A stretch of DNA of 34,153 bases from a virus (taxonomy: Duplodnaviria; Heunggongvirae; Uroviricota; Caudoviricetes). The position numbers were made by a program, and so were the translations under genes. A model generated the notes under the pieces. That model did no database searches. It was given only the letters and a program-made list of their open reading frames with translations, and was not told the DNA's origin. Every line of letters begins with the position of its first letter. Within the stretch, counting starts at the first letter, position 1. The stretch lies in the IMG/VR virus record IMGVR_UViG_2874968258_000005. One strand, given 5' to 3'. Shown piece by piece: positions 2,938 through 26,356 of the stretch.

Positions 2938-3469
2938 CGGGACGCTCCGGCCAGTTGATGGCGTTATATGTGGCTTTATCTGTGATGGTGCTGAAATCCA
3001 TCGCCTGCAGCGATTTCGCGTAAATACGGTACGCTTTCAGTTTTTCCCGGTCTTCGTCGCTGATTAGCCCCAGCAGCAGGTCTTCTTCCCATTCCCCTGT
3101 CCGGGCACTGACCTGAGCCAGAAGGGCATCACGCTCATCTTCCGCTTTGAGTCTGTAGTCAAAGACAAATTCATCATTGCGGTAAAACCAGTAACCCGGC
3201 GCGGTAATGCGGCGGTTGGCGGTAATATCAGGAACTTCAATAACACTGGCGTTACGGGGTTCAATGCCTGTCACATCCTTACCGACCCACACCACGCGCC
3301 CGTCTCCGGTGTAAACCATTTTTATGGTGTCACTGGCAAAGTTCTTCTGTTCTTCATACCAGTTTTTGCCGTCTTCCGAAAAAAGCCAGGTGACATCATA
3401 CTGTTTTGTCAGCTGATATTGTTCCGCGGTTTTCGGATTACCTGCCGTAATATTTTTTAAATGCAACAT
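2924..3469 (-). CDS. Tail fibre assembly protein (Mu U / lambda Tfa-like) for the first fibre
   Basis: 181 aa directly after the S-like fibre. C-terminal region (...KLKAYRIYAKSLQAMDFSTITDKATYNAINWPERP) resembles the Tfa C-terminal domain. Confidence 0.7.
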   Translation of the reverse strand: MLHLKNITAGNPKTAEQYQLTKQYDVTWLFSEDGKNWYEEQKNFASDTIKMVYTGDGRVVWVGKDVTGIEPRNASVIEVPDITANRRITAPGYWFYRNDEFVFDYRLKAEDERDALLAQVSARTGEWEEDLLLGLISDEDREKLKAYRIYAKSLQAMDFSTITDKATYNAINWPERPDAAA

Positions 3470-3471
3470 TG

Positions 3472-4572
3472 TTAAATACTCGCTACGTTATACCAGGTGC
3501 CATTAATCAGTTTTTGCAGCGGTCGGTAATACACACCGTTGACGTTATCCGCTGAGTTACGGCCGGTATCCGATATCGATATCCCTGACAACCCGTGTCC
3601 CGAAGGTGAGCGAAACGTCCATGAAACGGTGTTGCTGCCAGGGTTGTAATACATTTCATAACCATACCGCACATCCTGTACCCCCTCAGTTCGATGTTTA
3701 TAGCGGGCATCGAAGTTTCCGTAGTCTGACGGTGTTACCCGTCCTGTAACGTTTACAGCTTTATTACTCTGGATACTGCCACTCTGAAAACGCAACACAT
3801 GCACGCTATTGGCATAAACATCCAGCAGGCCATCACCATTCTGTTTGAATCCGGTGTCATTATCACCAAGAACAATTGAATTCCCCCCCAGGGCGTTCTG
3901 AACGCCGATACCCAGCGCACCATTGACCTGCGAACCACCGCCAACAGACACTTTATGCGACATGGATATTTCACCCGTCCGCAGATTAATGGTGAACGGA
4001 CGCAGGGGGCCAATATCGCCATTCTCGCCCTGACCTTCACTGGTAGGGATAAGGTGCAGGCACTCTTCCGAACGACGAAAAATCAGGCCAAAAGCTTCGT
4101 TGAAAATCCTCAGCGCATTAACACCACGGATTTTCAGCTCTCCTGTCATCGTGCCGCCTGATTGTTTTATGACTTTCAGTGCATCTGCAAAATCTGTTGC
4201 ACTCTCTTTGCCGAGAATACCGCGCACAAAAGCACTGAGCGGTGTTAATGCCATTGTGTCTTTGCCGGTAAAATACGGGAATGTATTATTCTGACCGGTT
4301 AATCCGGCAATAGCACCGGCTGAACCACTGTTCGTAATAAACAGCTTTTTCAGCGCCGTCATAATCTGGTTGGTTGTGTTTTTATCCGGTTTGATATTTG
4401 CCTGCCGGAGTATTTCCAGTAATTCAGACTGAATAATATTAAACCAGTCCGGCCCCGGATAGGTGGGCGGAATACCGTTCCCGCCTTCGGTGAAATAAAG
4501 CGTTGTTTTGCTTAATTCTGCCGCGACAGGTGGCATTACCGGCACACCCGTCGGGTTATCCACATAAAACAT
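3472..4572 (-). CDS. Tail fibre protein 1 (Mu S-like, conserved N-terminal baseplate-attachment region)
   Basis: 366 aa. N-terminus MFYVDNPTGVPVMPPVA...YFTEGGNGIPPTYPGPDWFNIIQSEL is typical of Mu/P2-type fibre N-termini. Position is right after the baseplate genes. Confidence 0.7.
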   Translation of the reverse strand: MFYVDNPTGVPVMPPVAAELSKTTLYFTEGGNGIPPTYPGPDWFNIIQSELLEILRQANIKPDKNTTNQIMTALKKLFITNSGSAGAIAGLTGQNNTFPYFTGKDTMALTPLSAFVRGILGKESATDFADALKVIKQSGGTMTGELKIRGVNALRIFNEAFGLIFRRSEECLHLIPTSEGQGENGDIGPLRPFTINLRTGEISMSHKVSVGGGSQVNGALGIGVQNALGGNSIVLGDNDTGFKQNGDGLLDVYANSVHVLRFQSGSIQSNKAVNVTGRVTPSDYGNFDARYKHRTEGVQDVRYGYEMYYNPGSNTVSWTFRSPSGHGLSGISISDTGRNSADNVNGVYYRPLQKLINGTWYNVASI

Positions 4573-18633: not shown

Positions 18634-20197
18634 GAGCAGTGTCTCCCAGCGCACGCGCCTTAAAGCACACCTCCGCCAGTTGCAGGGCAAAGTCGTCCGC
18701 GTTCAGCGTTTCCTGAAGCTCAGGCAGGCGTTTCAGAAAGTCATCAAAACTGTCGCACTCCTGCGCCAGTGTCAGCACCGGGTTCGTGAACGCCTCGCCG
18801 GTTTTCTGCCAGTCACGCAGGGCATCATCCACCATCTGTGCCAGTTCGTCGGGGTGTTCCCTGTTCAGGGCGACGCGCTCGCGGTTCATCGCCATATCAC
18901 CCGGCATCCCGGCGGAAACCGGATGCAGAACATCAGCCCCTTCGTCTGGCTCAGCCAGGCCGAACCGGTCCCGCAGCTCCGATTCCTGAACCCGCATCCC
19001 CCGGTCAATCAGCGGCACCAGAGCATCCGTCAGCGCCTTCAGATCTTCGGCTTCACTGATACGCAGAACAACACGGGGGTAGTGCGCCTGTGGCCCGTAG
19101 TTGGCCTCGATGTAGGGCCGCACCAGATATTCATTCAGCGTGTTAGCCAGCTGTCGCGCGTCCCAGCGCACAATGTCCATGCGCACCTGATTGTGCACGT
19201 CCGCCTGTGAACGCGAACTGCCGTTATCCGTGGTCATGGTCTGCCCCAGCACAGCCTTACTGATTTGCGCATCGCACCATTCCGCCATTTCACGGAACAG
19301 TGCGCCGCCGTTATTCCGGCTGGCGGTTTCCTGCATCTCCAGTTGCATGGACTGCGGAATGGCACACCCGGCATCCGAGGCAATGGAGGCAATCGCATCA
19401 ATCAGCACGCGGATTTGCTCCTCCGTGGCGTTGGGACCGTATTTCCCCACCGTAACCGGAATGCCGAATTTTTCCGCAAATGCCCACCAGTCGCGCACGG
19501 TAAAGGATTTCAGCATGTACATCACAGCCACCAGACGGGCCAGACCGTTACGCAGCGGCAGACCGGATTTCAGACGCGGCTGGTGAACAATGAATTTTCC
19601 CGGTGTCAGCGGTACGCCATCCACCGGTTCATCGTCCGTCAGCAGGCGGAACTGGCGCAGCGTGGGCTTTTCGGCTTTCAGAAAACGGGGATCAACCCAC
19701 TCATAATCACGGGGCATCCAGTGGTTGTTGCGGGTGTCCCACAGGATTTCACAGACCGCCACGCCTTTTCCCAGCCCGTCGAGCAAATCAAACATCAGTT
19801 CGGGGATTTGCGGGGCTTCCATCAGCGCACGGATGGCGTCCGCCAGCTGCACGTCGGCATCGTCATCACTGGCGGCCACCACCACCGGTTCGATACCTGC
19901 CACTGTCAGCTTGCGGGTGCGCAGCACCGAGGCGTAATGCAAATCACGTTCTTCCATCTCTTCGGCAAGGATAAAAAAATCACGCGTGATGCCGTCGGCG
20001 GCATTGCGCAGAATGCCTGCCAGCCTGCCGGGGTTCAGCCCGGAGGCGACGCTGATACCCGGCGAGGCCGGACGCACACCGGCATGACGCGGACGGGCCT
20101 GTGCTTCGTTGAGCGCCTCTTTTTTCAGCGTGTCTTCCTCACCGGTTGCCGGATTCAGCAGACGGCGAACGGCCCCGGCCAGTTGTTTCAGGTTCAC
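18626..20197 (-). CDS. Portal protein (Mu H / gp29-like, DUF935)
   Basis: 523 aa immediately after the large terminase, start overlapping the terminase stop. Confidence 0.85.
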   Translation of the reverse strand: MNLKQLAGAVRRLLNPATGEEDTLKKEALNEAQARPRHAGVRPASPGISVASGLNPGRLAGILRNAADGITRDFFILAEEMEERDLHYASVLRTRKLTVAGIEPVVVAASDDDADVQLADAIRALMEAPQIPELMFDLLDGLGKGVAVCEILWDTRNNHWMPRDYEWVDPRFLKAEKPTLRQFRLLTDDEPVDGVPLTPGKFIVHQPRLKSGLPLRNGLARLVAVMYMLKSFTVRDWWAFAEKFGIPVTVGKYGPNATEEQIRVLIDAIASIASDAGCAIPQSMQLEMQETASRNNGGALFREMAEWCDAQISKAVLGQTMTTDNGSSRSQADVHNQVRMDIVRWDARQLANTLNEYLVRPYIEANYGPQAHYPRVVLRISEAEDLKALTDALVPLIDRGMRVQESELRDRFGLAEPDEGADVLHPVSAGMPGDMAMNRERVALNREHPDELAQMVDDALRDWQKTGEAFTNPVLTLAQECDSFDDFLKRLPELQETLNADDFALQLAEVCFKARALGDTAHA

Positions 20198-21729
20198 AGT
20201 AAACCTCCCTCATTTTTCAGGCCGCGTGTCAGCTTCATCTGGCGGCGCGCGTTGCCTTCTTCCGGTTTCGCCGGGCGGTTCAGGCGGTGCAGCTCGTAAC
20301 GGTGGCAGTCATCTTTACTGGCAAGGAAGCCCAGGAAAATAGCCACAGCGGCGTCGCCGTGACGCTTGCGGCCATCACTGCCTTTAGTACGGGCATCGTC
20401 AATACCGGGAACGCCACGCAGTAACTGAATGGCCCCGAGGTCATTGATCACATCTTCATGCTTCGGAAGGATCAGCTCATCATCTTCAAACGCCGCACGG
20501 AAACGGGGCATGTTTTCGCGGTAGAACGCCACGGACAGCATCACCTGTTCCACCTCGTCGCCGTATCGTTCTGCCGCCTGTTCTGCCAGATACTGACCAT
20601 TACCCCGCGCATCCATTTTGATACCGTCACGACGGGGCAGACGATCGCAAAGCCAGAACAGCACCTGCTCCTGCTGTTTAAACGGCACATTGGCAAGCTC
20701 AACCAGAAACGGCACCTCGCGGGTGGTGTCGTCGTTCACCGTCACCGGGGCCAGCACGGTCAGGTCACCCGAACGCGCAAAGTCTTCCCCCAGACAGTGG
20801 CGCAGATTCTTCGGGAGTTTTTCCAGCTCAGGGCGCACCACCGTTTCCAGCCATTCCCTGATCTCTGCCCGGCGCTGGCCTTCCGTCAGTGCGTTAAATT
20901 CCGGTGTGCCGGTAAAGCGCAACACTTTTCCGGTGCCACGGGCCGCACGTTCACGCAGTGAGCGGGGGATATACGTGCCGCCGCCGTTTTTCGGGACGCA
21001 GTAATACTCCTCCAGCGCATCTTCGCGGGTGGCGGTATTTCGCAGCAGGCCTTCTTTCCATTCCACCTCGGCTTCCGGTGACCACACCATGCCGCGCACC
21101 TGACAGATACGCCGGTACAGCCCGTCATTACAGGCGTCATCCAGCGTGATGGTGTGAATACGGTAATCTTTTTTGCCCGCGCGGCTTTCCTGAATCAGCT
21201 GGTTAAACGGGTTGTCCACGCCGTCATGGGTGGAGATAAGGCGAACCTTACCGCCCCACGTGGTCAGTGGTGTGACCGCCTTGAGTACCTCATCCAGCTT
21301 TTCATGAAACGCCGCTTCGTCGATGGTGACATTCCCCTGCATCCCGCGAATGTTGCCCGGATTACTGGACAGCGCCTTGACCTTAAATCCGCTGGCGAAG
21401 TACACGACGAACGTCAGAATGTCCTTGTCTTCGTCGGTGATCACTTCCTCGCGGATTTCTTCCGCGGCTGCATTAAACGCTTTTGCCCACATCGCCACGG
21501 CGTCGATAAATTCGCGGGCCATCTCCTTGTTCGAACCGATGTAAAAGTGATCGCGCCCGCCGTTTTCCTTCTTCAGTGATGCGGTCAGTGCCGCATCTGC
21601 CGCTTCCGCCCAGGTTAAACCGGTACGGCGCGATTTTTCGGCGATTTTCAGTTTTGAATCATCCGCCACCCAGCGTTTCTGATACGGCAGCAGAACATCG
21701 GATTCACTGAATGCGTTCATCTGTGTCAT
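20194..21729 (-). CDS. Terminase large subunit (Mu gp28-like)
   Basis: 511 aa with an N-terminal ATPase-like region and a C-terminal nuclease-like region (DARGNG). Confidence 0.85.
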   Translation of the reverse strand: MTQMNAFSESDVLLPYQKRWVADDSKLKIAEKSRRTGLTWAEAADAALTASLKKENGGRDHFYIGSNKEMAREFIDAVAMWAKAFNAAAEEIREEVITDEDKDILTFVVYFASGFKVKALSSNPGNIRGMQGNVTIDEAAFHEKLDEVLKAVTPLTTWGGKVRLISTHDGVDNPFNQLIQESRAGKKDYRIHTITLDDACNDGLYRRICQVRGMVWSPEAEVEWKEGLLRNTATREDALEEYYCVPKNGGGTYIPRSLRERAARGTGKVLRFTGTPEFNALTEGQRRAEIREWLETVVRPELEKLPKNLRHCLGEDFARSGDLTVLAPVTVNDDTTREVPFLVELANVPFKQQEQVLFWLCDRLPRRDGIKMDARGNGQYLAEQAAERYGDEVEQVMLSVAFYRENMPRFRAAFEDDELILPKHEDVINDLGAIQLLRGVPGIDDARTKGSDGRKRHGDAAVAIFLGFLASKDDCHRYELHRLNRPAKPEEGNARRQMKLTRGLKNEGGLL

Positions 21730-22307
21730 ACACTAATCCCCAGAATTTCACGTTTGATGGTGTCAGCCGCACCGCCTGACAGACCGCCCGCTCTGACCAG
21801 CTCTTCGGTTTTCTCTGCCATTTCCTGCGCAAACGCATCGCGGATTGCTTTTTCGCGTTTATGGCTGGTCATGGCTGCCGCTTCCAGACGCTGGGCAACC
21901 AGCGCCAGTTGCCCCAGCGCCTTCGGTGCAACAGGTTTGTCGTCTTCTGTCATCGACATGGACGTTTCAAAGGCCAGCGTTTTTACAAACTCCATCAGCA
22001 GCCTGCCGACGTCTGACGTCGGCGCGGAACCCAGCTTTGCCGCCCAGACTTCGGCCATTTCGCGGGAGGCACGGATTTTTGCCCCGACTTTTTCCATGCG
22101 GCTGGCATAGCGGTTTAAGCCCGTCCGGCTTAACTGCATCTCCCCCGGCAGGTTGTGTTCGTCAATCAGGGCATTGATGGCTTCGCGGATTTCTTCCTGC
22201 GTGTGCCGCTTTTCCCGCAGCATCTGGTGTAACTGCTCACGGATGCTGTCCGGGAGTAAATCCACTTTGGAAAGACGGCCACGGGTGGGGCGTTGTTCAT
22301 TTTCCAT
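21726..22307 (-). CDS. Mu gp27-like protein (DUF3486), putative small terminase / DNA-recognition subunit
   Basis: 193 aa, helical and charged, directly upstream of and coupled to the large terminase (ATGA overlap). Confidence 0.5.
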   Translation of the reverse strand: MENEQRPTRGRLSKVDLLPDSIREQLHQMLREKRHTQEEIREAINALIDEHNLPGEMQLSRTGLNRYASRMEKVGAKIRASREMAEVWAAKLGSAPTSDVGRLLMEFVKTLAFETSMSMTEDDKPVAPKALGQLALVAQRLEAAAMTSHKREKAIRDAFAQEMAEKTEELVRAGGLSGGAADTIKREILGISV

Positions 22308-22584
22308 CTTCTGTCCTCTGTGTTTTCAGACCAGCGTATATTTCTTCACGAACGGACTGAATATCCTTACCTGGCAGCTTCCACAGCCGCGCACATGCCG
22401 GTGATGACCGCAGGGCGCGTTTCATGGGGGTATCCGGTGCATCCGGGTTCCAGGGCTTTCCTGTATGTTTTTCGTATGCACGGACAATGGCGTTTTGCTC
22501 AATGTCTGCCAGCACAAGGCAGTACGCCAGCTGCCGCACGACGGCCCGTTCTCCACGACTTAACGGCTTCAGTTTTCGGGCCAT
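22297..22584 (-). CDS. Mu gp26-like small protein
   Basis: 95 aa upstream of the gp27-like gene by synteny. Confidence 0.4.
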   Translation of the reverse strand: MARKLKPLSRGERAVVRQLAYCLVLADIEQNAIVRAYEKHTGKPWNPDAPDTPMKRALRSSPACARLWKLPGKDIQSVREEIYAGLKTQRTEDGK

Positions 22585-22586
22585 GT

Positions 22587-22880
22587 TCAGTCCCTCGCAC
22601 GGGGTTTTTTAACGCCCGGCACACCGGACAGGCCGTTTGCCACATCCTCGCCGCTGCCGGTGATTTCAGCCACGTAACAGCCGCCCACATCAGACAGACG
22701 AACCAGCCCCTGCTCGCGCAGCCATGCAAGCTGGGTGCGCACCACATCACGGGATACCTTATGACCGTAGGCCTGAAGGCAGGTCTGCAACACGGATTCA
22801 TTCGCGCTGTCGCCACAGTCCAGCAGGGAACGCAGCAACACCAGACGACGGTCTTCAGTGAGGATCTCTTTCATCGCCAT
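22587..22880 (-). CDS. Small winged-helix-like DNA-binding protein (function unknown)
   Basis: 97 aa with a helix-turn-helix-like segment (...VSRDVVRTQLAWLREQGLVRL...). Confidence 0.4.
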   Translation of the reverse strand: MAMKEILTEDRRLVLLRSLLDCGDSANESVLQTCLQAYGHKVSRDVVRTQLAWLREQGLVRLSDVGGCYVAEITGSGEDVANGLSGVPGVKKPRARD

Positions 22881-23185
22881 TAATTTTTTTCCTTTAATTC
22901 GTTCTCTAATAACAAATCGCTGATGCGGGATACCTGGCGGATGGATGGCCCCAGCTCTTTGATTTCACCCCGCAGGTTGCTGATATCCAGTTGCAGGCGG
23001 TGAAATTCATTGCGGTCGGGTAGCTGATTCACCAGGCCTTCCATCACCGACACGCGGGAACGCAGCGAATCAAACTCTTCGCGTTTGACGTAAGTCTTCG
23101 CCAGAATCAGCTGAATCAGGTTTATTGCTGTCATCAACAGCGCCCATAAAACAGGCCAGTTGGCCCGGATCACTTCCCAGGACAC
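22880..23185 (-). CDS. Membrane-anchored coiled-coil protein (i-spanin-like topology; lysis-associated?)
   Basis: 101 aa with an N-terminal hydrophobic helix (WPVLWALLMTAINLIQLIL) and then a coiled-coil. Confidence 0.4.
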   Translation of the reverse strand: MSWEVIRANWPVLWALLMTAINLIQLILAKTYVKREEFDSLRSRVSVMEGLVNQLPDRNEFHRLQLDISNLRGEIKELGPSIRQVSRISDLLLENELKEKN

Positions 23186-23397
23186 GTCTTCCTCCTGTGT
23201 TCCCGCGCCTGCTGGCAGTCAATACAGGTCACCACATCCGGCAGCACCGCAAGGCGCTGTGCCGGAATAACGTTCCCGCAGTCATTGCAGAAGCCCCGAC
23301 TGTGGGGTGCTTCTTTTATCCGCATCAGCCAGGCGTTAACGACGTCCTGACGTTCGTTTAAAACCACTTCACTGATGCGGTCGGTTTCATCGGTCAT
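23170..23397 (-). CDS. TraR/DksA-family C4 zinc-finger protein
   Basis: 75 aa with CNDCGNVIPAQRLAVLPDVVTCIDCQ, a C4 zinc-finger spacing typical of phage TraR/DksA-like proteins. Confidence 0.6.
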   Translation of the reverse strand: MTDETDRISEVVLNERQDVVNAWLMRIKEAPHSRGFCNDCGNVIPAQRLAVLPDVVTCIDCQQAREHRRKTCPGK

Positions 23398-24002
23398 TTC
23401 GGCCCCGCTGATATTTTGTGACAGCTCGATTTGCTGTAACGGGCAAAGCCGTCAAGGGTTCTTACCCCGAGATAGCCCAGCGCCGGGGTAAACAACATCA
23501 GCGTGATATCCCAGTCCGGTGACGGCATATGCAGCGTGATACCGTTCGCACCGGCAACCGCACCGGCAATCTGGCCACAGGAGAGCAACAGCACATAGGC
23601 CAGACTGCTGTAACAGGACAGACGGGCCAGCAACGGGCGCGTCTGGCGCACATAGCTGTCCGTGGCGTTGTCACCGTTGCGGATGGTTTCCTGTTGTTCG
23701 TGGTGAGCGGCCTGCTGGTCAGCCAGCACCAGCTTCTGCCGCTCCACCTCCAGCTGTTGCAGCTGGACTTTCAGGGTTTCCAGCTGCACCAGTTGCTCCG
23801 GTGACAGCATCACCAGTTTTTGTTCCAGAATGCGTTGCTGTTCAGCCACCGGCAGGCTTTCCCGGACGCTTTCCACCATACCGGCCACCGAGTCAGCGGC
23901 GGCAGATGTGCTGCCACCAAACCAGCGCCCGACGGAACGAATCAGCCCCGGCCCGGCTTTCAGCAGAACGGAGGCGATGCCTGAAAGGGTTAACGGGTCC
24001 AT
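23394..24002 (-). CDS. Coiled-coil protein with C-terminal transmembrane segments (lysis-cluster membrane protein)
   Basis: 202 aa with a central LQQLEVERQKL-type coiled-coil and hydrophobic C-terminal helices. Confidence 0.45.
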   Translation of the reverse strand: MDPLTLSGIASVLLKAGPGLIRSVGRWFGGSTSAAADSVAGMVESVRESLPVAEQQRILEQKLVMLSPEQLVQLETLKVQLQQLEVERQKLVLADQQAAHHEQQETIRNGDNATDSYVRQTRPLLARLSCYSSLAYVLLLSCGQIAGAVAGANGITLHMPSPDWDITLMLFTPALGYLGVRTLDGFARYSKSSCHKISAGPK

Positions 24003-24400
24003 GAATCCCCCTTATGAAAACGGCGCTGATGTTTATAAAGTGCCGCACAAAAGATACCGCCCAGCCAGAACGCCAGCTGATAAGGCTCCTTCAGATAAAG
24101 AAGGCCGAATGTCAGCATGAAAAAACCAACGGCCCAGACCACCCATGACCACACGACAATTCGAAGGGAGGCGGCCCGGAAACGCCTTTTGGGTTGCAGG
24201 CGATAAGGTACGTTGCCCAGCTGGAAACTGTGAATCAGGCAGAGTGTCGCGCCGTATGCCAGCACCATGACCGCAAACGCCTGCCATCCGGCAAAACAGC
24301 TCGCCAGAAAAAGGACTGCCGACAGCCCCAGAAACGACCACTGGCACAACATAAAGCGGGAGTAAATAACGCGAACAAAAAGACTATTCATTCTGTGCAT
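23990..24400 (-). CDS. Small polytopic membrane protein (about 4 TM helices), holin candidate
   Basis: Start taken at the internal ATG near 24400, preceded by an AAGGA RBS. Four hydrophobic helices; lies downstream of the endolysin. Confidence 0.45.
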   Translation of the reverse strand: MHRMNSLFVRVIYSRFMLCQWSFLGLSAVLFLASCFAGWQAFAVMVLAYGATLCLIHSFQLGNVPYRLQPKRRFRAASLRIVVWSWVVWAVGFFMLTFGLLYLKEPYQLAFWLGGIFCAALYKHQRRFHKGDSWTR

Positions 24401-24611
24401 TGAGTTTTTCCTTGTACTTCTGGCACTGCCAGAAAATGTCCCGTGTATCCACGGTGTTCCAGCCACGCATGTAGTGGCTGGCGTGTGTGCCGTCATGACC
24501 GGTATAGTCCAGCGGTTTCGGGGGCGGACCTCCGGCCATACGATGTAAAACCTCCTGACGCAGGCGGTCACGCCGCCCGGCTCTCAGCGAGGCATCCCAG
24601 CCTTTGCCCAT
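24384..24611 (-). CDS. Hypothetical 75-aa protein translationally coupled to the endolysin gene
   Basis: ATG 1 nt after the endolysin stop (TGAtATG). Confidence 0.35.
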   Translation of the reverse strand: MGKGWDASLRAGRRDRLRQEVLHRMAGGPPPKPLDYTGHDGTHASHYMRGWNTVDTRDIFWQCQKYKEKLNAQNE

Positions 24612-24612
24612 A

Positions 24613-25200
24613 TCATCCCCGCGTGACGGACGACACGTTGTCGATAATTTCCAGACAGGCGTCGGTCACTTTCTCCATGCGGTTAAACCAGCCGTTCAGG
24701 TATTTGCCCTGGGCAGGTTTGGATTTGATGATGTCGGCATAAAAGCGGGAACGACGGACAATGCAGCGGGTCAGCAACCAGTCCGGGGTGGACAGGCTCA
24801 CTGCCTTACGGGTACGCGGACCGATGATGCCGTCAGCATCCACATCAGCGGCTTCCTGCAAAATCCTGATAGCTTTTTTAACGCCATGCTGAACCGCCGC
24901 ATCGAACACAAACATCGCCACGCCATCAGGCCACTGGTCACATCCGGCAGGCAGCCAGTAATCGCGCCAGTAAATCTGCGCGACCTGTTCGCGGGTTAAA
25001 TCCCTGATGCGGGTATCCGGTTTACCGTCGCCGCTGACATCGGTTTTGCCGTCAATCACACCGTCGCGGCGGTCAGAAATGCCGTATCTGGTTTCGCCGC
25101 CACGGTCAGTGGGGTCATTGACATAGACGCCTTCGATATCGGGACGCAGAATAAAATTCAGCGCATACTCAAAGGCCGGGGAGAATTTTTGATTTTCCAT
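24613..25200 (-). CDS. Endolysin, GH108-type muramidase with C-terminal peptidoglycan-binding domain
   Basis: 195 aa. N-terminal ...FEYALNFILRPDIEGVYVNDPTDRGGETRYGI... is the GH108 signature region. AGGTG RBS. No SAR or signal-anchor segment. Confidence 0.8.
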   Translation of the reverse strand: MENQKFSPAFEYALNFILRPDIEGVYVNDPTDRGGETRYGISDRRDGVIDGKTDVSGDGKPDTRIRDLTREQVAQIYWRDYWLPAGCDQWPDGVAMFVFDAAVQHGVKKAIRILQEAADVDADGIIGPRTRKAVSLSTPDWLLTRCIVRRSRFYADIIKSKPAQGKYLNGWFNRMEKVTDACLEIIDNVSSVTRG

Positions 25201-25211
25201 AAAAGCACCTG

Positions 25212-25240
25212 TGAAGCAGATTTAAACGTGGTCTGCTTCA
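25212..25240 (-). promoter_or_regulatory. Stem-loop immediately upstream of the endolysin RBS
   Basis: TGAAGCAGA-(11 nt)-TCTGCTTCA, ending 2 nt before the AGGTG RBS. Confidence 0.3.
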
Positions 25241-25255
25241 TGGTGCCGGAGGCAT

Positions 25256-25281
25256 AAAAAAAGCCGGATTTACCGGCTTCA
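25256..25281 (-). terminator. Intrinsic terminator after mor (candidate end of the early/middle transcript)
   Basis: Same GAAGCCGG-TAAAT-CCGGCTTC + U7 element as at 17704-17729, about 5 nt after the mor stop. Confidence 0.6.
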
Positions 25282-25285
25282 TTGA

Positions 25286-25735
25286 TTAAGGACGTCGTGG
25301 CGGACGACGAACGGGGTGAGGCAGGTTCGGGGAGTGGTAAAACAAATCCGGCTGGTATTTATTACACTCCAGACGCCGCATCCGCTTGATGGCCTTGTAG
25401 ACGGTTTTATACGTCACCCCGTAACGCTGAACCAGTTCAGGAATATTATGGCCGTTAAAATCACGCCAGATACGCATATCCCGGACAAGATTCTCCAGAA
25501 TATTCCCCCTCGGAACATAAACCTGCATCCCGCCGATATAGCGACAAATCGCCACAACCAGCTCAAGGGAATGGGCAGGGTCTGCGCCAATCCGGGCCAG
25601 CTCTTTACGCAGCAGTGCGTTCAGTTCAGAAAGTAACGCCGGATAAGCCGTGTTTTCCTGGTAATCGTTAAGGTATTCCAGAACGCTGTCGTCCCGGAAG
25701 TCTTCGAATAAATCCTGCTCTTTCATCTGTTTCAT
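25286..25735 (-). CDS. mor: Mor/C-family transcription activator (Mor-like)
   Basis: 149 aa with ...YPALLSELNALLRKELARIGADPAHSLELVVAICRYIGGMQVYVPRG...WRDFNGHNIPELVQRYGVTYKTVYKAIKRMRR, matching the Mor/C family as I recall it. Coupled to gemA upstream, as in Mu. Confidence 0.75.
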   Translation of the reverse strand: MKQMKEQDLFEDFRDDSVLEYLNDYQENTAYPALLSELNALLRKELARIGADPAHSLELVVAICRYIGGMQVYVPRGNILENLVRDMRIWRDFNGHNIPELVQRYGVTYKTVYKAIKRMRRLECNKYQPDLFYHSPNLPHPVRRPPRRP

Positions 25736-26283
25736 ACAGCAATTCTCCCGCTGTTTCGTGCGCGGGCATATGCACTGGTCAGTGCATCATAGCCGCGCAG
25801 CTTCCGCCCGGTTTCGCTCACAGGTAAAGGCACACCATGTCGGGCAAAGGCTTCCCGGATGCAGCGCATATGCCACTGTTTGAGCGTTTCGAGCACAACA
25901 TGCAACGATTCCCCGTGACACCAGGCCAGCGTGGAAACACCCTGACCGCCATTACGTCTGGCCGTCAGGCGTTCAACGTATTTGTCCAGCGCAGCGTCGC
26001 TGATATCGGAGACGAAACCATCAAGGAACATCTGCTGCCAGATTTTATAAATCTTCTCGCGCGGTGTGACATGCCCCTTAAAGCGACGGCGGGGATGTTT
26101 TTTCTGCTTCTTAAAACCGCGCTCTTTCATGGCATCGAGCACACGTTCCAGTTGTGCAACGGACAGCTCGCGGCAACTGGTTTTGCCCGTGTGCTGCACC
26201 AGAAAGGCGCGGTAAGTGTCATCGTCGAGTTGTAGATCACGACGGGCGACATGAATTAATTTAATCAGGGATGTGCGATTCAT
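25732..26283 (-). CDS. gemA: GemA-like regulatory protein (DUF1018)
   Basis: Start at the internal ATG giving 183 aa (MNRTSLIKLIHVARRDLQLDDDTYRAFL...). Directly upstream of mor. Confidence 0.7.
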   Translation of the reverse strand: MNRTSLIKLIHVARRDLQLDDDTYRAFLVQHTGKTSCRELSVAQLERVLDAMKERGFKKQKKHPRRRFKGHVTPREKIYKIWQQMFLDGFVSDISDAALDKYVERLTARRNGGQGVSTLAWCHGESLHVVLETLKQWHMRCIREAFARHGVPLPVSETGRKLRGYDALTSAYARARNSGRIAV

Positions 26284-26290
26284 TATCGTA

Positions 26291-26324
26291 CCTCCAGAAA
26301 AGGGGGCGGTGCGGCAACACCGCC
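26291..26324 (-). promoter_or_regulatory. Hairpin plus U-rich tract in the gemA leader (attenuator/terminator-like)
   Basis: Minus-strand GGCGGTG-uugccg-CACCGCC followed by CCCCUUUUCUGGAGG, the last part being the gemA RBS. Confidence 0.35.
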
Positions 26325-26356
26325 AGAATCCACTCACTAAACAGAGGAAACTTTTT

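Follow-up and report, generated by a model that had tools for sequence, protein, structure and literature searches.

The lysis genes of phage Mu comprise a SAR T4-type lysozyme (gp22) and a two-component spanin (gp23/gp23.1), but no holin. Mu gp25, a "releasin" of the DUF2730 family, has no holin-like lethality or growth effect on its own and acts via the basic N-terminus of the membrane-tethered SAR endolysin (PMC9239132). Members of this family are defined by an N-terminal transmembrane (TM) helix, an N-out/C-in topology, two basic residues at the membrane boundary, and a gene position no more than five genes 3' of the endolysin (PMC9239132). Chamblee et al. (2022) posed the question of whether DUF2730 is needed for lysis in Mu-like phages with soluble endolysins. 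The pairing of GH108 enzymes with DUF2730 was already tabulated there (Table S1), and the GH108-type examples are marine Vibrio phages. A second point of reference is the gene transfer agent RcGTA, in which rcc00555 (endolysin) and rcc00556 (holin, PF11351) are required for lysis (PMC5026251).

Here, the same architecture as in the Vibrio phages is found in a prophage of E. coli, a host for which plasmid co-expression, prophage deletions, and spherical-cell assays in Mg2+ are standard methods. In the joint reading that we favor and regard as reasonably probable, an intact Mu-like prophage of E. coli has its lysis cassette in region 22587-25200 on the (-) strand, together with the first genes of a block shared with Mu, with orf202 as the hole-former, orf136 as its modulator, and a TraR-type protein that binds RNA polymerase. 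The parts of the cassette are largely ordinary and recognizable, and no known gene for breaking the outer membrane is among them. The system could reveal the first phage holin of the GTA holin family and the way in which a myophage gets through the outer membrane without spanins; otherwise, the result is a better annotation of an ordinary prophage.

Gene order and comparison with Mu-like phages

The window, that is, the whole stretch of 34,153 nucleotides that was analyzed, contains the following features in and next to the cassette, listed in the direction of transcription.

25253..25280, (-) strand: intrinsic terminator hairpin GAAGCCGG-TAAAT-CCGGCTTT with a T7 run, immediately past the stop codon of Mor (terminator scan, RNA fold)
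25204..25247, (-) strand: two-tier hairpin in the endolysin leader, with an outer stem that pairs the Shine-Dalgarno sequence AGGTG at 25206-25210 (RNA fold)
24613..25200, (-) strand: soluble endolysin, GH108 muramidase with PG_binding_3, 195 aa (Pfam, PHROG, PDB, and NCBIfam matches)
24384..24611, (-) strand: orf75, conserved small basic soluble protein, 75 aa (annotated by PGAP; starts 1 nt past the endolysin stop)
23990..24400, (-) strand: orf136, inner-membrane protein with four TM segments, 136 aa, candidate accessory holin or antiholin (hydropathy, charge distribution, phrog_12596)
23394..24002, (-) strand: orf202, GTA_holin_3TM-like fold, best holin candidate (PF11351 profile, AF2, Foldseek, gene position)
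23170..23397, (-) strand: TraR/DksA-family C4 zinc-finger protein, 75 aa (PF01258, TIGR02419, alignment to F TraR; ATGA overlap with orf202)
22880..23185, (-) strand: DUF2730 protein of the Mu gp25 "releasin" family (PF10805; N-terminal TM helix and cytoplasmic coiled coil predicted)
22587..22880, (-) strand: orf97, Mu gp26 homolog of the VpaChn25_0724 family, winged-helix-like (61% identity to Mu gp26; NF050184, 2.2e-35; phrog_436)

The genes lie downstream of Mor on the (-) strand and follow each other with tight overlaps in one operon, in the order GH108 endolysin, orf75, orf136, orf202, TraR homolog, DUF2730, and gp26 homolog, after which the terminase genes begin. With Mu, the locus shares the order of Mor (62% identity), a gp24-like four-cysteine slot, gp25/DUF2730 (27%), gp26 (61%), and gp27 (46%), as well as a terminator after the activator gene. 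Mu gp24 has four cysteines in a C-x2-C-x17-C-x2-C spacing identical to that of the TraR open reading frame, and the two are linked with an hhalign probability of 53%. In contrast to Mu, the locus encodes a soluble GH108 enzyme, orf75, orf136, and orf202, no spanin, and a single Mor-family gene without a separate C. The original prediction that the cluster differs from that of Mu is thus borne out between the endolysin and orf202, both included, but not for the TraR slot, DUF2730, and orf97, which correspond to Mu gp24, gp25, and gp26 in this order. Nor does the TraR gene sit in the middle of the lysis cluster, as had been stated: it opens the Mu-conserved block that runs into the terminase genes.

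Judging by gene order and protein similarity, the same module is found in Mu-like phages of Vibrio, Shewanella, and Klebsiella. Vibrio myophages (e.g., 1.028.O._10N.286.45.B6, MG592412) and Shewanella vB_SspM_MuM16-2 have the same succession of Mor, GH108 plus PG_binding_3, orf75-like, orf202-like, TraR, DUF2730, gp26-like, gp27, and TerL genes. They differ from the prophage in protein sequence (28 to 60% identity), in the missing gene for the four-TM protein orf136, and in a gene for a secreted protein that separates Mor from the endolysin and has no counterpart at this place in the prophage. The module is kept in 65 IMG/VR contigs, and the prophage architecture is carried by about 50 of the 5,426 complete E. 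coli genomes; megablast against phage genomes gave no near match.

Endolysin and leader hairpin

The endolysin had been described as a GH108 muramidase with a peptidoglycan-binding domain and without a signal anchor, and the profile searches agree. Glyco_hydro_108 (PF05838) is matched with an E value of 2e-23 (83.1 bits against a Pfam cutoff of 21.2) and PG_binding_3 with 2e-17, also above the Pfam cutoff. Furthermore, the protein matches the endolysins of phrog_315 (1.5e-53), and its match to the structures 2is5/2ikb (E = 5e-20) aligns the E-G-x-Y...GGET motif; in the alignment to 2is5, the N-terminal motif of the catalytic domain (E-G-G-Y/GGxT) reads EGVYVNDPTDRGGET against EGGYANHPKDPGGET. 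The match to NF040573 ("holin-associated N-acetylmuramidase", 7.6e-20) is under the cutoff. The N-terminus (MENQKFSPAFEYALNF) is polar, and the Kyte-Doolittle mean stays below 1.4 in every 19-residue window of the enzyme; neither a signal peptide nor a SAR domain or TM segment is predicted. Since the enzyme is soluble, a hole-former is needed, as the original prediction had it.

Upstream of the endolysin, the AAUCCGGCUUUUUUU element is kept in enterobacterial loci, and the leader folds into the two-tier hairpin listed above. The fold of segment 25190-25290 has a free energy of -35.4 kcal/mol (z = -4.8), and none of 200 shuffled sequences was as stable. This architecture recurs in 31 distinct relatives, whose inner stems come in at least 10 sequence versions, with a median z of -3.7. 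The covariation argument is based on the folds of the individual sequences; MAFFT combined with RNAalifold gave no consensus for the leader hairpins, the variable stems being misaligned. With default filters, a covariance model of the E. coli-type hairpin recovered only a few divergent copies, and no Rfam family was matched. By pairing the Shine-Dalgarno sequence, the hairpin probably prevents translation of the endolysin on transcripts that read through from the Mor operon. The inner palindrome was also considered as a Mor-type activator site and rejected: its center precedes the ATG by only about 30 nt, and transcription would start inside the gene.

Candidates for the hole-former

Only three small membrane proteins, orf136, orf202, and DUF2730, are annotated across the whole prophage. 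Their topologies were assigned from Kyte-Doolittle hydropathy and the positive-inside rule, without a trained predictor. All three had been described from the sequence before, and each description fits: the small four-helix membrane protein downstream of the endolysin is orf136, with four hydrophobic segments; the coiled-coil protein with C-terminal TM helices is orf202, with long helices and a pair of TM segments at the C-terminus; and the protein with an N-terminal membrane helix and a coiled coil is DUF2730 (E = 9e-30). The general description of a holin, a small membrane protein, expressed late, that has one or more TM segments and a charged C-terminus, fits both orf202 and orf136.

In orf202, an N-terminal helix of weak hydrophobicity is followed by a coiled coil of about 100 aa, predicted to be cytoplasmic, by two strong TM helices near the C-terminus, and by a C-terminal tail with a charge of +5. 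The protein matches PF11351 (GTA_holin_3TM) with an E value of 0.0027 and 18.7 bits, which is under the gathering threshold of 24.8. Among 81 members of its family, however, 35 match PF11351 (best E value, 8.4e-9), and no other family was matched more than once. The AF2 model has a pLDDT of 90.9, and its top Foldseek match in BFVD is annotated "Holin of 3TMs" (E = 2e-7, 31% identity). These intermediate sequences and the fold connect orf202 to the GTA holin family PF11351 as a peripheral member. The original prediction named no holin. Like RcGTA, the prophage pairs a muramidase with an approximately 200-aa membrane protein of the same broad family, and a spanin is described for neither system. 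The likeness ends at the chromosomal two-gene locus there as opposed to the phage late operon here, at the score of orf202 below the Pfam threshold, and at orf75 and orf136, which lie between endolysin and orf202 in the prophage.

The position of the gene carries the argument further. Genes of the orf202 family follow endolysins of four types (GH108, DUF5675, Amidase_2, and M15 peptidase) in unrelated phages, and orf202 is therefore the best holin candidate. Directly 3' of the endolysin, orf202-like genes are found with GH108, Amidase_2, and M15 enzymes; an orf75-like gene lies between the two in the prophage, in the Vibrio/Shewanella Mu-like phages (GH108 or DUF5675), and in L079, and orf136 is an additional insertion in the prophage. 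In minimal Mu-like relatives, the GH108 gene is followed by the orf202-like gene without orf75 or the four-TM gene, and the orf202-like protein and DUF2730 are the sole membrane proteins available for the export of a soluble endolysin. In our model, orf202 would accumulate in the inner membrane with an N-out/C-in orientation and a large cytoplasmic coiled-coil loop, and at a set time it would form holes through which the cytoplasmic muramidase reaches the wall.

orf136 is predicted to be N-in/C-in and has a basic C-terminus (+5 tail). PGAP places its start so as to give 136 aa, and the mechanical 193-aa reading frame from 24571 is an over-extension. The protein itself occurs in E. coli only; Klebsiella-type relatives carry versions with 30 to 40% identity, and the homologs have a fixed slot and keep an LGN(V/L)P(Y/F)RL loop. 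A similar gene is absent in the Vibrio, Shewanella, and metagenomic relatives examined. From this distribution, orf136 is seen as a fast-evolving, enterobacteria-only partner. It may modulate the timing of lysis in a lineage-specific manner as a co-holin or antiholin, possibly with a dual start (M1-H-R-M4). A match to phrog_2121 shared with orf202 raised the idea of orf136 as a paralog of the TM domain of orf202, which was dropped at an hhalign probability of 0.3%.

One could also assign the roles the other way around, with orf136 as the true holin and orf202 as another lysis factor, for instance an antiholin or a substitute for the missing spanin in the outer-membrane or late step. orf136 is indeed closer to a textbook holin, being small, with four TM segments, N-in/C-in, with the +5 tail and the possible dual start, and adjoining the endolysin; its quick divergence in sequence with the topology kept is typical of holins. 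Moreover, the Janthinobacterium phage Donnerlittchen already has a separate LydA-type holin, and its orf202-like gene comes after this holin and the endolysin, in the usual position of spanins. As in the RcGTA lysis locus, no spanin is described for the clade of the present prophage. However, the Vibrio, Shewanella, and metagenomic relatives combine the same soluble GH108 enzyme with an orf202-like protein and have no orf136-like gene, which excludes orf136 as the holin of the module at large. Furthermore, the prediction places most of orf202 in the cytoplasm, a layout hardly to be expected of a protein that bridges the periplasm. We consider this exchange of roles unlikely and retain orf202 as the favored hole-former.

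Outer-membrane step and the block shared with Mu

In the original prediction, no lipoprotein o-spanin was obvious. Six-frame lipobox scans of the cluster and of the whole window gave no credible candidate for an o-spanin or u-spanin; on the coding strand, no lipobox reading frame anywhere in the window had a credible signal peptide. A spanin pair elsewhere would have spoken against that prediction; neither an i-spanin nor an o- or u-spanin gene is found anywhere in the prophage. A small, strongly cationic amphipathic peptide of the disruptin kind is not evident, either. [quoted passage not shown] One of the spanin-less phages is phiKT, which likewise has no i-, o-, or u-spanin gene; its disruptin gp28 differs from orf75, which is only mildly basic and has a predicted three-helix fold.

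Two candidates within the cassette were rejected. An internal GTG at 23651 in orf202 ("MRQTRPLLARLSCYSSLAYVLLLS|C..." followed by the C-terminal TM segment) might start a mini u-spanin, but it is in frame with orf202 and would leave a periplasmic linker of only about 15 residues; the cysteine of the in-frame "LLLSC" is absent in the Klebsiella homolog. An i-spanin has an N-in/C-out TM helix and a periplasmic coiled coil; DUF2730 is not one, because its coiled coil is cytoplasmic by the positive-inside rule, and the Mu data point the same way. With no spanin or known disruptin encoded, rupture of the outer membrane may be passive or caused by an unrecognized component. A more far-reaching proposal is that the whole Mu-like clade (E. 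coli, Klebsiella, Vibrio, and Shewanella) lyses without spanin or disruptin, with the outer-membrane step performed by orf202 or orf75, a general, SAR-independent role of DUF2730 in lysis or packaging, and endolysin translation gated by the conserved Shine-Dalgarno hairpin; as a package, this is unlikely.

orf75 carries a net charge of +4 (pI 9.6), and its AF2 model consists of three helices (pLDDT 82). Homologs hold the same position in the Vibrio, Shewanella, and Klebsiella phages, and PF26867 is precomputed on 18 close homologs. Fold and sequence searches against PDB gave no significant match. A resemblance to the ribosome modulation factor (RMF), suggested by the look of the sequence (MKRQK..., W..GW), did not hold up: the hhalign probability was 1.2%, the PDB profile search returned noise only, and RMF appeared in Foldseek at an E value of 6.7. 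P0283 (176 aa), with PF26867 and similarity to orf136, was considered as a natural orf75-orf136 fusion and discarded, as its sequence resembles a frameshifted product.

The zinc-finger reading frame had been called TraR/DksA-type, and it is a full-length TraR homolog: residues 2 to 70 align to residues 2 to 70 of F TraR (5w1s_M; E = 2e-6). It matches zf-dskA_traR (PF01258) with an E value of 1.8e-11 (44.3 bits, cutoff 24.9) and TIGR02419 with 2.7e-15 (56.7 bits, narrowly under the trusted cutoff of 59.7), and its cysteines are C37, C40, C58, and C61. With the F-plasmid TraR/lambda Orf73 family, it shares the C4 zinc finger at a length of 75 aa, close to the roughly 73 aa of the TraR subfamily, the acidic tip (D3/D6), R48, and the C-terminal helix region. 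It differs in DETDRI for DxxDxA, in L49, and in its location in a late lysis/packaging operon instead of an early or regulatory region. By the criteria of PMC9239242, the DxxDxA region (D3-E-T-D6-R-I8) keeps both aspartates, and A8 is replaced by isoleucine; R48, which contacts the rim helix, is kept and is invariant in five homologs from the module, and R49, which contacts β' Si3, is replaced by leucine. All phage TraR homologs tested bound RNA polymerase, among them P2 Orf82 and Gp34 with an imperfect DxxDxA, and homologs with imperfect motifs were active, albeit weaker (PMC9239242). [quoted passage not shown]

The protein could instead be a structural or packaging-linked zinc-finger protein and no modulator of RNA polymerase, as may be the case for Mu gp24, which is syntenic and has the same cysteine spacing, yet no Pfam match to zf-dskA_traR. 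The late operon, which differs from the setting of lambda orf73 and P2 orf82, the loss of A8 and R49, and the absence of the gene from some relatives would fit such a role. Against it stand the Pfam score well above the cutoff, the alignment to F TraR that covers the acidic tip and R48, and the binding of RNA polymerase by P2 Orf82 and Gp34, and we regard it as quite improbable compared with a TraR-type RNA polymerase binder.

The DUF2730 protein matches PF10805 with 103 bits (E = 9e-30, cutoff 24.9) and Mu gp25 with 27% identity (E = 9e-11). Its TM helix (residues 10 to 29) is followed by KTYVKR (K-x-x-x-K-R), the predicted topology is N-out/C-in, and the gene is the fifth after the endolysin, within the five-gene range of the family (PMC9239132). 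It is a family member, but the SAR-freeing mechanism of Mu cannot apply, because the cognate endolysin is predicted to lack a SAR domain. A releasin-type export or trigger factor adapted to the soluble enzyme, with orf202 and orf136 as accessories, is highly improbable, although DUF2730 is kept in every relative examined: Mu gp25 has no holin-like effect and needs the basic N-terminus of a SAR endolysin, which is absent here, it is hard to see how a folded 21-kDa enzyme would be exported by a single TM helix with about 9 residues in the periplasm, and the DUF2730 gene travels with gp26, gp27, and the terminase genes, not with the swappable endolysin segment. By its matches, orf97 is not recognizable as a lysis gene. 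The original prediction had overlooked orf75 (24384-24611), the affiliation of DUF2730 to the Mu gp25 family, and the synteny with Mu gp24-gp25-gp26.

Gene map of the lysis region

A near-complete Mu-like transposable prophage, encoded on the minus strand, spans the window; com/mom lie at its left end, and the genes for repressor and transposase at its right. Chromosomal prophages in E. coli FDAARGOS_943 and VL40 share 99% identity with the window, and no match to it was found among deposited phage genomes at the megablast level. The 3.8-kb lysis region (window 22000-25800), used as a query, was matched in 50 of 5,426 complete E. coli genomes, mostly at 90-95% identity. The full gene list was taken from the PGAP annotation of the VL40 prophage copy, and family assignments were supplemented from PHROGs and NCBIfam. 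The genes are transcribed toward decreasing coordinates, and nearly all gene junctions are overlapping (ATGA, TAATG, or 13-17 nt) or leave gaps of only 1-2 nt; hence, the genes form one translationally coupled operon.

Features of the lysis region and its flanks, in order of transcription (orf numbers give the length in amino acids)
25732-26337, minus strand: GemA (Pfam GemA)
25286-25735, minus strand: Mor (Pfam Mor)
25204-25280, minus strand: intrinsic terminator followed by a two-tier hairpin, in the 85-nt Mor-endolysin gap
24613-25200, minus strand: endolysin, GH108 and PG_binding_3, both above Pfam cutoffs
24384-24611, minus strand: orf75, PGAP coding sequence without a Pfam match in a library lacking PF26867
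23990-24400, minus strand: orf136, four transmembrane (TM) segments
23394-24002, minus strand: orf202, helices and two C-terminal TM segments
23170-23397, minus strand: TraR-like protein (zf-dskA_traR, E = 1.8e-11)
22880-23185, minus strand: DUF2730 protein (PF10805, E = 9e-30)
22587-22880, minus strand: orf97, homologue of Mu gp26
22297-22584, minus strand: orf95, phrog_8988, unknown function
21726-22307, minus strand: gp27 small terminase (Phage_Mu_Gp27)
20194-21729, minus strand: TerL, terminase large subunit by PGAP annotation

Comparison with Mu and with related prophages

The lysis cluster had been predicted to differ from that of Mu, and this holds for one part of it. No Mu protein matches the endolysin, orf75, orf136, or orf202, whereas orf97 is 61% identical to gp26, the DUF2730 protein 27% to gp25, and the neighboring gp27 and Mor proteins 46% and 62% to their Mu counterparts. 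Therefore, the truly differing segment is endolysin-orf75-orf136-orf202, which stands in place of Mu lys-gp23/23.1, and the TraR, DUF2730, and gp26 genes are part of a backbone common to both phages. The Mor-family gene (25286-25735; 32% identity to Mu C) is the only one in the whole prophage; no separate C homologue was found there, although com and mom are present, which suggests a regulatory cascade shorter than that of Mu.

Over its whole length, the TraR-type zinc-finger protein of the original prediction can be aligned to F TraR; its gene belongs to this Mu-shared backbone. Judged by the functional residues of Gopalkrishnan et al. 2022 (PMC9239242), the protein keeps D3, D6, R48, and the four cysteines, with A8 changed to Ile and R49 to Leu. 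Mu gp24 (3025-3219 of the Mu locus, L007), annotated as hypothetical and without a Pfam match, takes the place of the TraR-like gene immediately before gp25, and its cysteine spacing, C-x2-C-x17-C-x2-C, is the same. Its hhalign match to the TraR zinc finger is weak (probability, 53%; E = 1.4e-4), and gp24 is possibly a degenerate zinc finger of the TraR type.

The cassette architecture is known and already published, and the cassette in the window is a new member. The module is also present in Vibrio phage 1.028.O, Shewanella MuM16-2, Vibrio ZX4290 (with the endolysin replaced by a DUF5675 protein), Klebsiella Kp4866-3, and 65 IMG/VR contigs. A minimal form, consisting of Mor, GH108, orf202-like, TraR, DUF2730, gp26, and gp27, was found in a more distant metagenomic Mu-like contig, and another such contig lacks TraR. 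Outside Mu-like phages, orf202-family genes lie directly 3' of a GH108, Amidase_2, or M15 endolysin. In enterobacterial members, the slot between orf75 and orf202 always holds a 4-TM gene of ~130 aa, whose identity to orf136 falls from 99% to 30% while topology and an LGN(V/L)P(Y/F)RL loop are kept; in the Vibrio and Shewanella members, this slot is empty. Between Mor and the endolysin lies a variable "moron" site. It is empty in the window (25201-25285), and relatives (loci L013-L069, ~3180-3800) carry there either a protein of 160-175 aa with a signal peptide or one of ~108 aa with three TM segments, none of them spanin-like.

The original prediction had overlooked orf75, a basic soluble protein (72-90 aa in the phage clade) that is always found directly 3' of the endolysin, from E. 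coli to Vibrio. Its homologues carry a precomputed PF26867 assignment, and AF2 predicts a three-helix protein for which no significant structural match was found.

Candidate holin and passage through the envelope

The endolysin is, as predicted, a GH108 enzyme with a peptidoglycan-binding domain and without a signal anchor; it contains no hydrophobic segment. Against the GH108 structures 2is5 and 2ikb, it gives an alignment with E = 5e-20 that preserves the E-G-x-Y...GGET motif, and the NCBIfam model "holin-associated N-acetylmuramidase" matches it as well. Enterobacterial GH108 endolysins have an Asp/Gly-rich insertion, DGVIDGKTDVSGDGKPD (window 25012-25074, residues about 43-63), which neither 2is5 nor the Vibrio and Shewanella homologues have; by its residue pattern, it resembles a calcium-binding loop of the DxDxDG type.

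Such an enzyme needs a route through the inner membrane, and we consider it somewhat probable that orf202 is the holin through which it would cross. An exhaustive phmmer search returned 135 relatives of orf202. Of the full-length ones, 35 of 81 match PF11351 (GTA_holin_3TM; best E = 8.4e-9), and no other family was matched more than once; orf202 alone scores under the PF11351 threshold. In RcGTA, lysis depends on both rcc00556, the founding member of this family, and the endolysin rcc00555 (PMC5026251). The AF2 model of orf202, built from the relatives' alignment (pLDDT, 90.9), has as its top viral fold matches proteins named "Holin of 3TMs" (E = 2e-7); no relatives were found in the PDB. The two C-terminal TM segments follow ~120 mostly helical residues, the N-terminal helix being Gly/Ala-rich and weakly hydrophobic (mean hydropathy of ~1.2, calculated by hand). 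From the charge distribution, an N-out/C-in topology with a cytoplasmic coiled coil of ~100 residues is predicted. To these links of family, fold, and neighborhood to lysis comes the fact that relatives without orf136 have only orf202 and DUF2730 as membrane proteins, and Mu gp25, of the DUF2730 family, has no holin-like activity (PMC9239132).

The same relatives argue against the main rival, in which orf136 is the holin, even though it has textbook holin traits: four TM helices, a predicted N-in/C-in topology, and a basic tail. Its start (window 24389-24400) reads M1-H-R-M4, with AAGGA 8 nt ahead of the first ATG, and a divergent E. coli allele starts with M-W-K-K-V-M; this arrangement resembles the lambda S motif with two starts for holin and antiholin, and M-H-R-M may be such a dual start. 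Alternatively, orf136 could be a partner of orf202, as co-holin or antiholin. Another possibility is that orf202 works at a later step of lysis, in line with the gene order in Janthinobacterium phage Donnerlittchen, which is LydA-type holin, M15 endolysin, and orf202-like gene. In that unrelated siphophage (locus L074, 1708-2962), the orf202-family gene occupies the usual spanin position, and a spanin annotation is absent.

The third membrane protein, foreseen as a coiled-coil protein with an N-terminal membrane helix, is present and was further identified as a DUF2730 protein. Its single TM segment is followed by KTYVKR, so that an N-out/C-in topology with a cytoplasmic coiled coil is predicted, which rules it out as an i-spanin. 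Mu gp25 is the "releasin": a cytoplasmic protein, tethered to the membrane, by which the SAR endolysin of Mu is released. DUF2730 genes also occur in many Mu-like phages with cytoplasmic endolysins (Chamblee et al. 2022, PMC9239132); Table S1 of that study includes Vibrio myophages in which a GH108+PG_binding_3 enzyme is accompanied by a DUF2730 protein of 100 aa.

Consistent with the expected lack of a lipoprotein o-spanin, searches for lipoboxes in all six frames, over the cluster and over the whole window, revealed no credible coding-strand lipoprotein, and neither a spanin nor an obvious disruptin is encoded in the prophage. Such a spanin gap is common to ~15% of phages of Gram-negative hosts (bioRxiv 10.1101/515445). 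The only small membrane proteins in the annotated prophage are orf136, orf202, and DUF2730. Since their membrane helices are present and no canonical holin/spanin pair was found elsewhere in the annotated prophage, the observation of a distinct cluster stands, and its interpretation was partly right.

Hairpin in the endolysin leader

The outer stem of the two-tier hairpin between Mor and the endolysin pairs the Shine-Dalgarno sequence of the endolysin gene (z = -4.8). All 31 distinct relatives examined, Vibrio and Shewanella phages among them, have a hairpin in the corresponding place ahead of the endolysin start, with a median z of -3.7 and a few weak folds (z of about -0.6 to -1). In the MFE folds, pairing covers all or most of the Shine-Dalgarno pentamer in 13 of 31 sequences and part of it in most others. 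No Rfam family matches the hairpin, and Mu has no compact equivalent. Among the relatives, the inner stem occurs in at least 10 unrelated versions, and there is co-variation between the outer arms; the recurrence of one architecture with unrelated stems suggests selection on structure. The hairpin possibly silences read-through transcripts, as a similar hairpin reportedly does for early read-through transcripts of T4 gene e (McPheeters et al. 1986).
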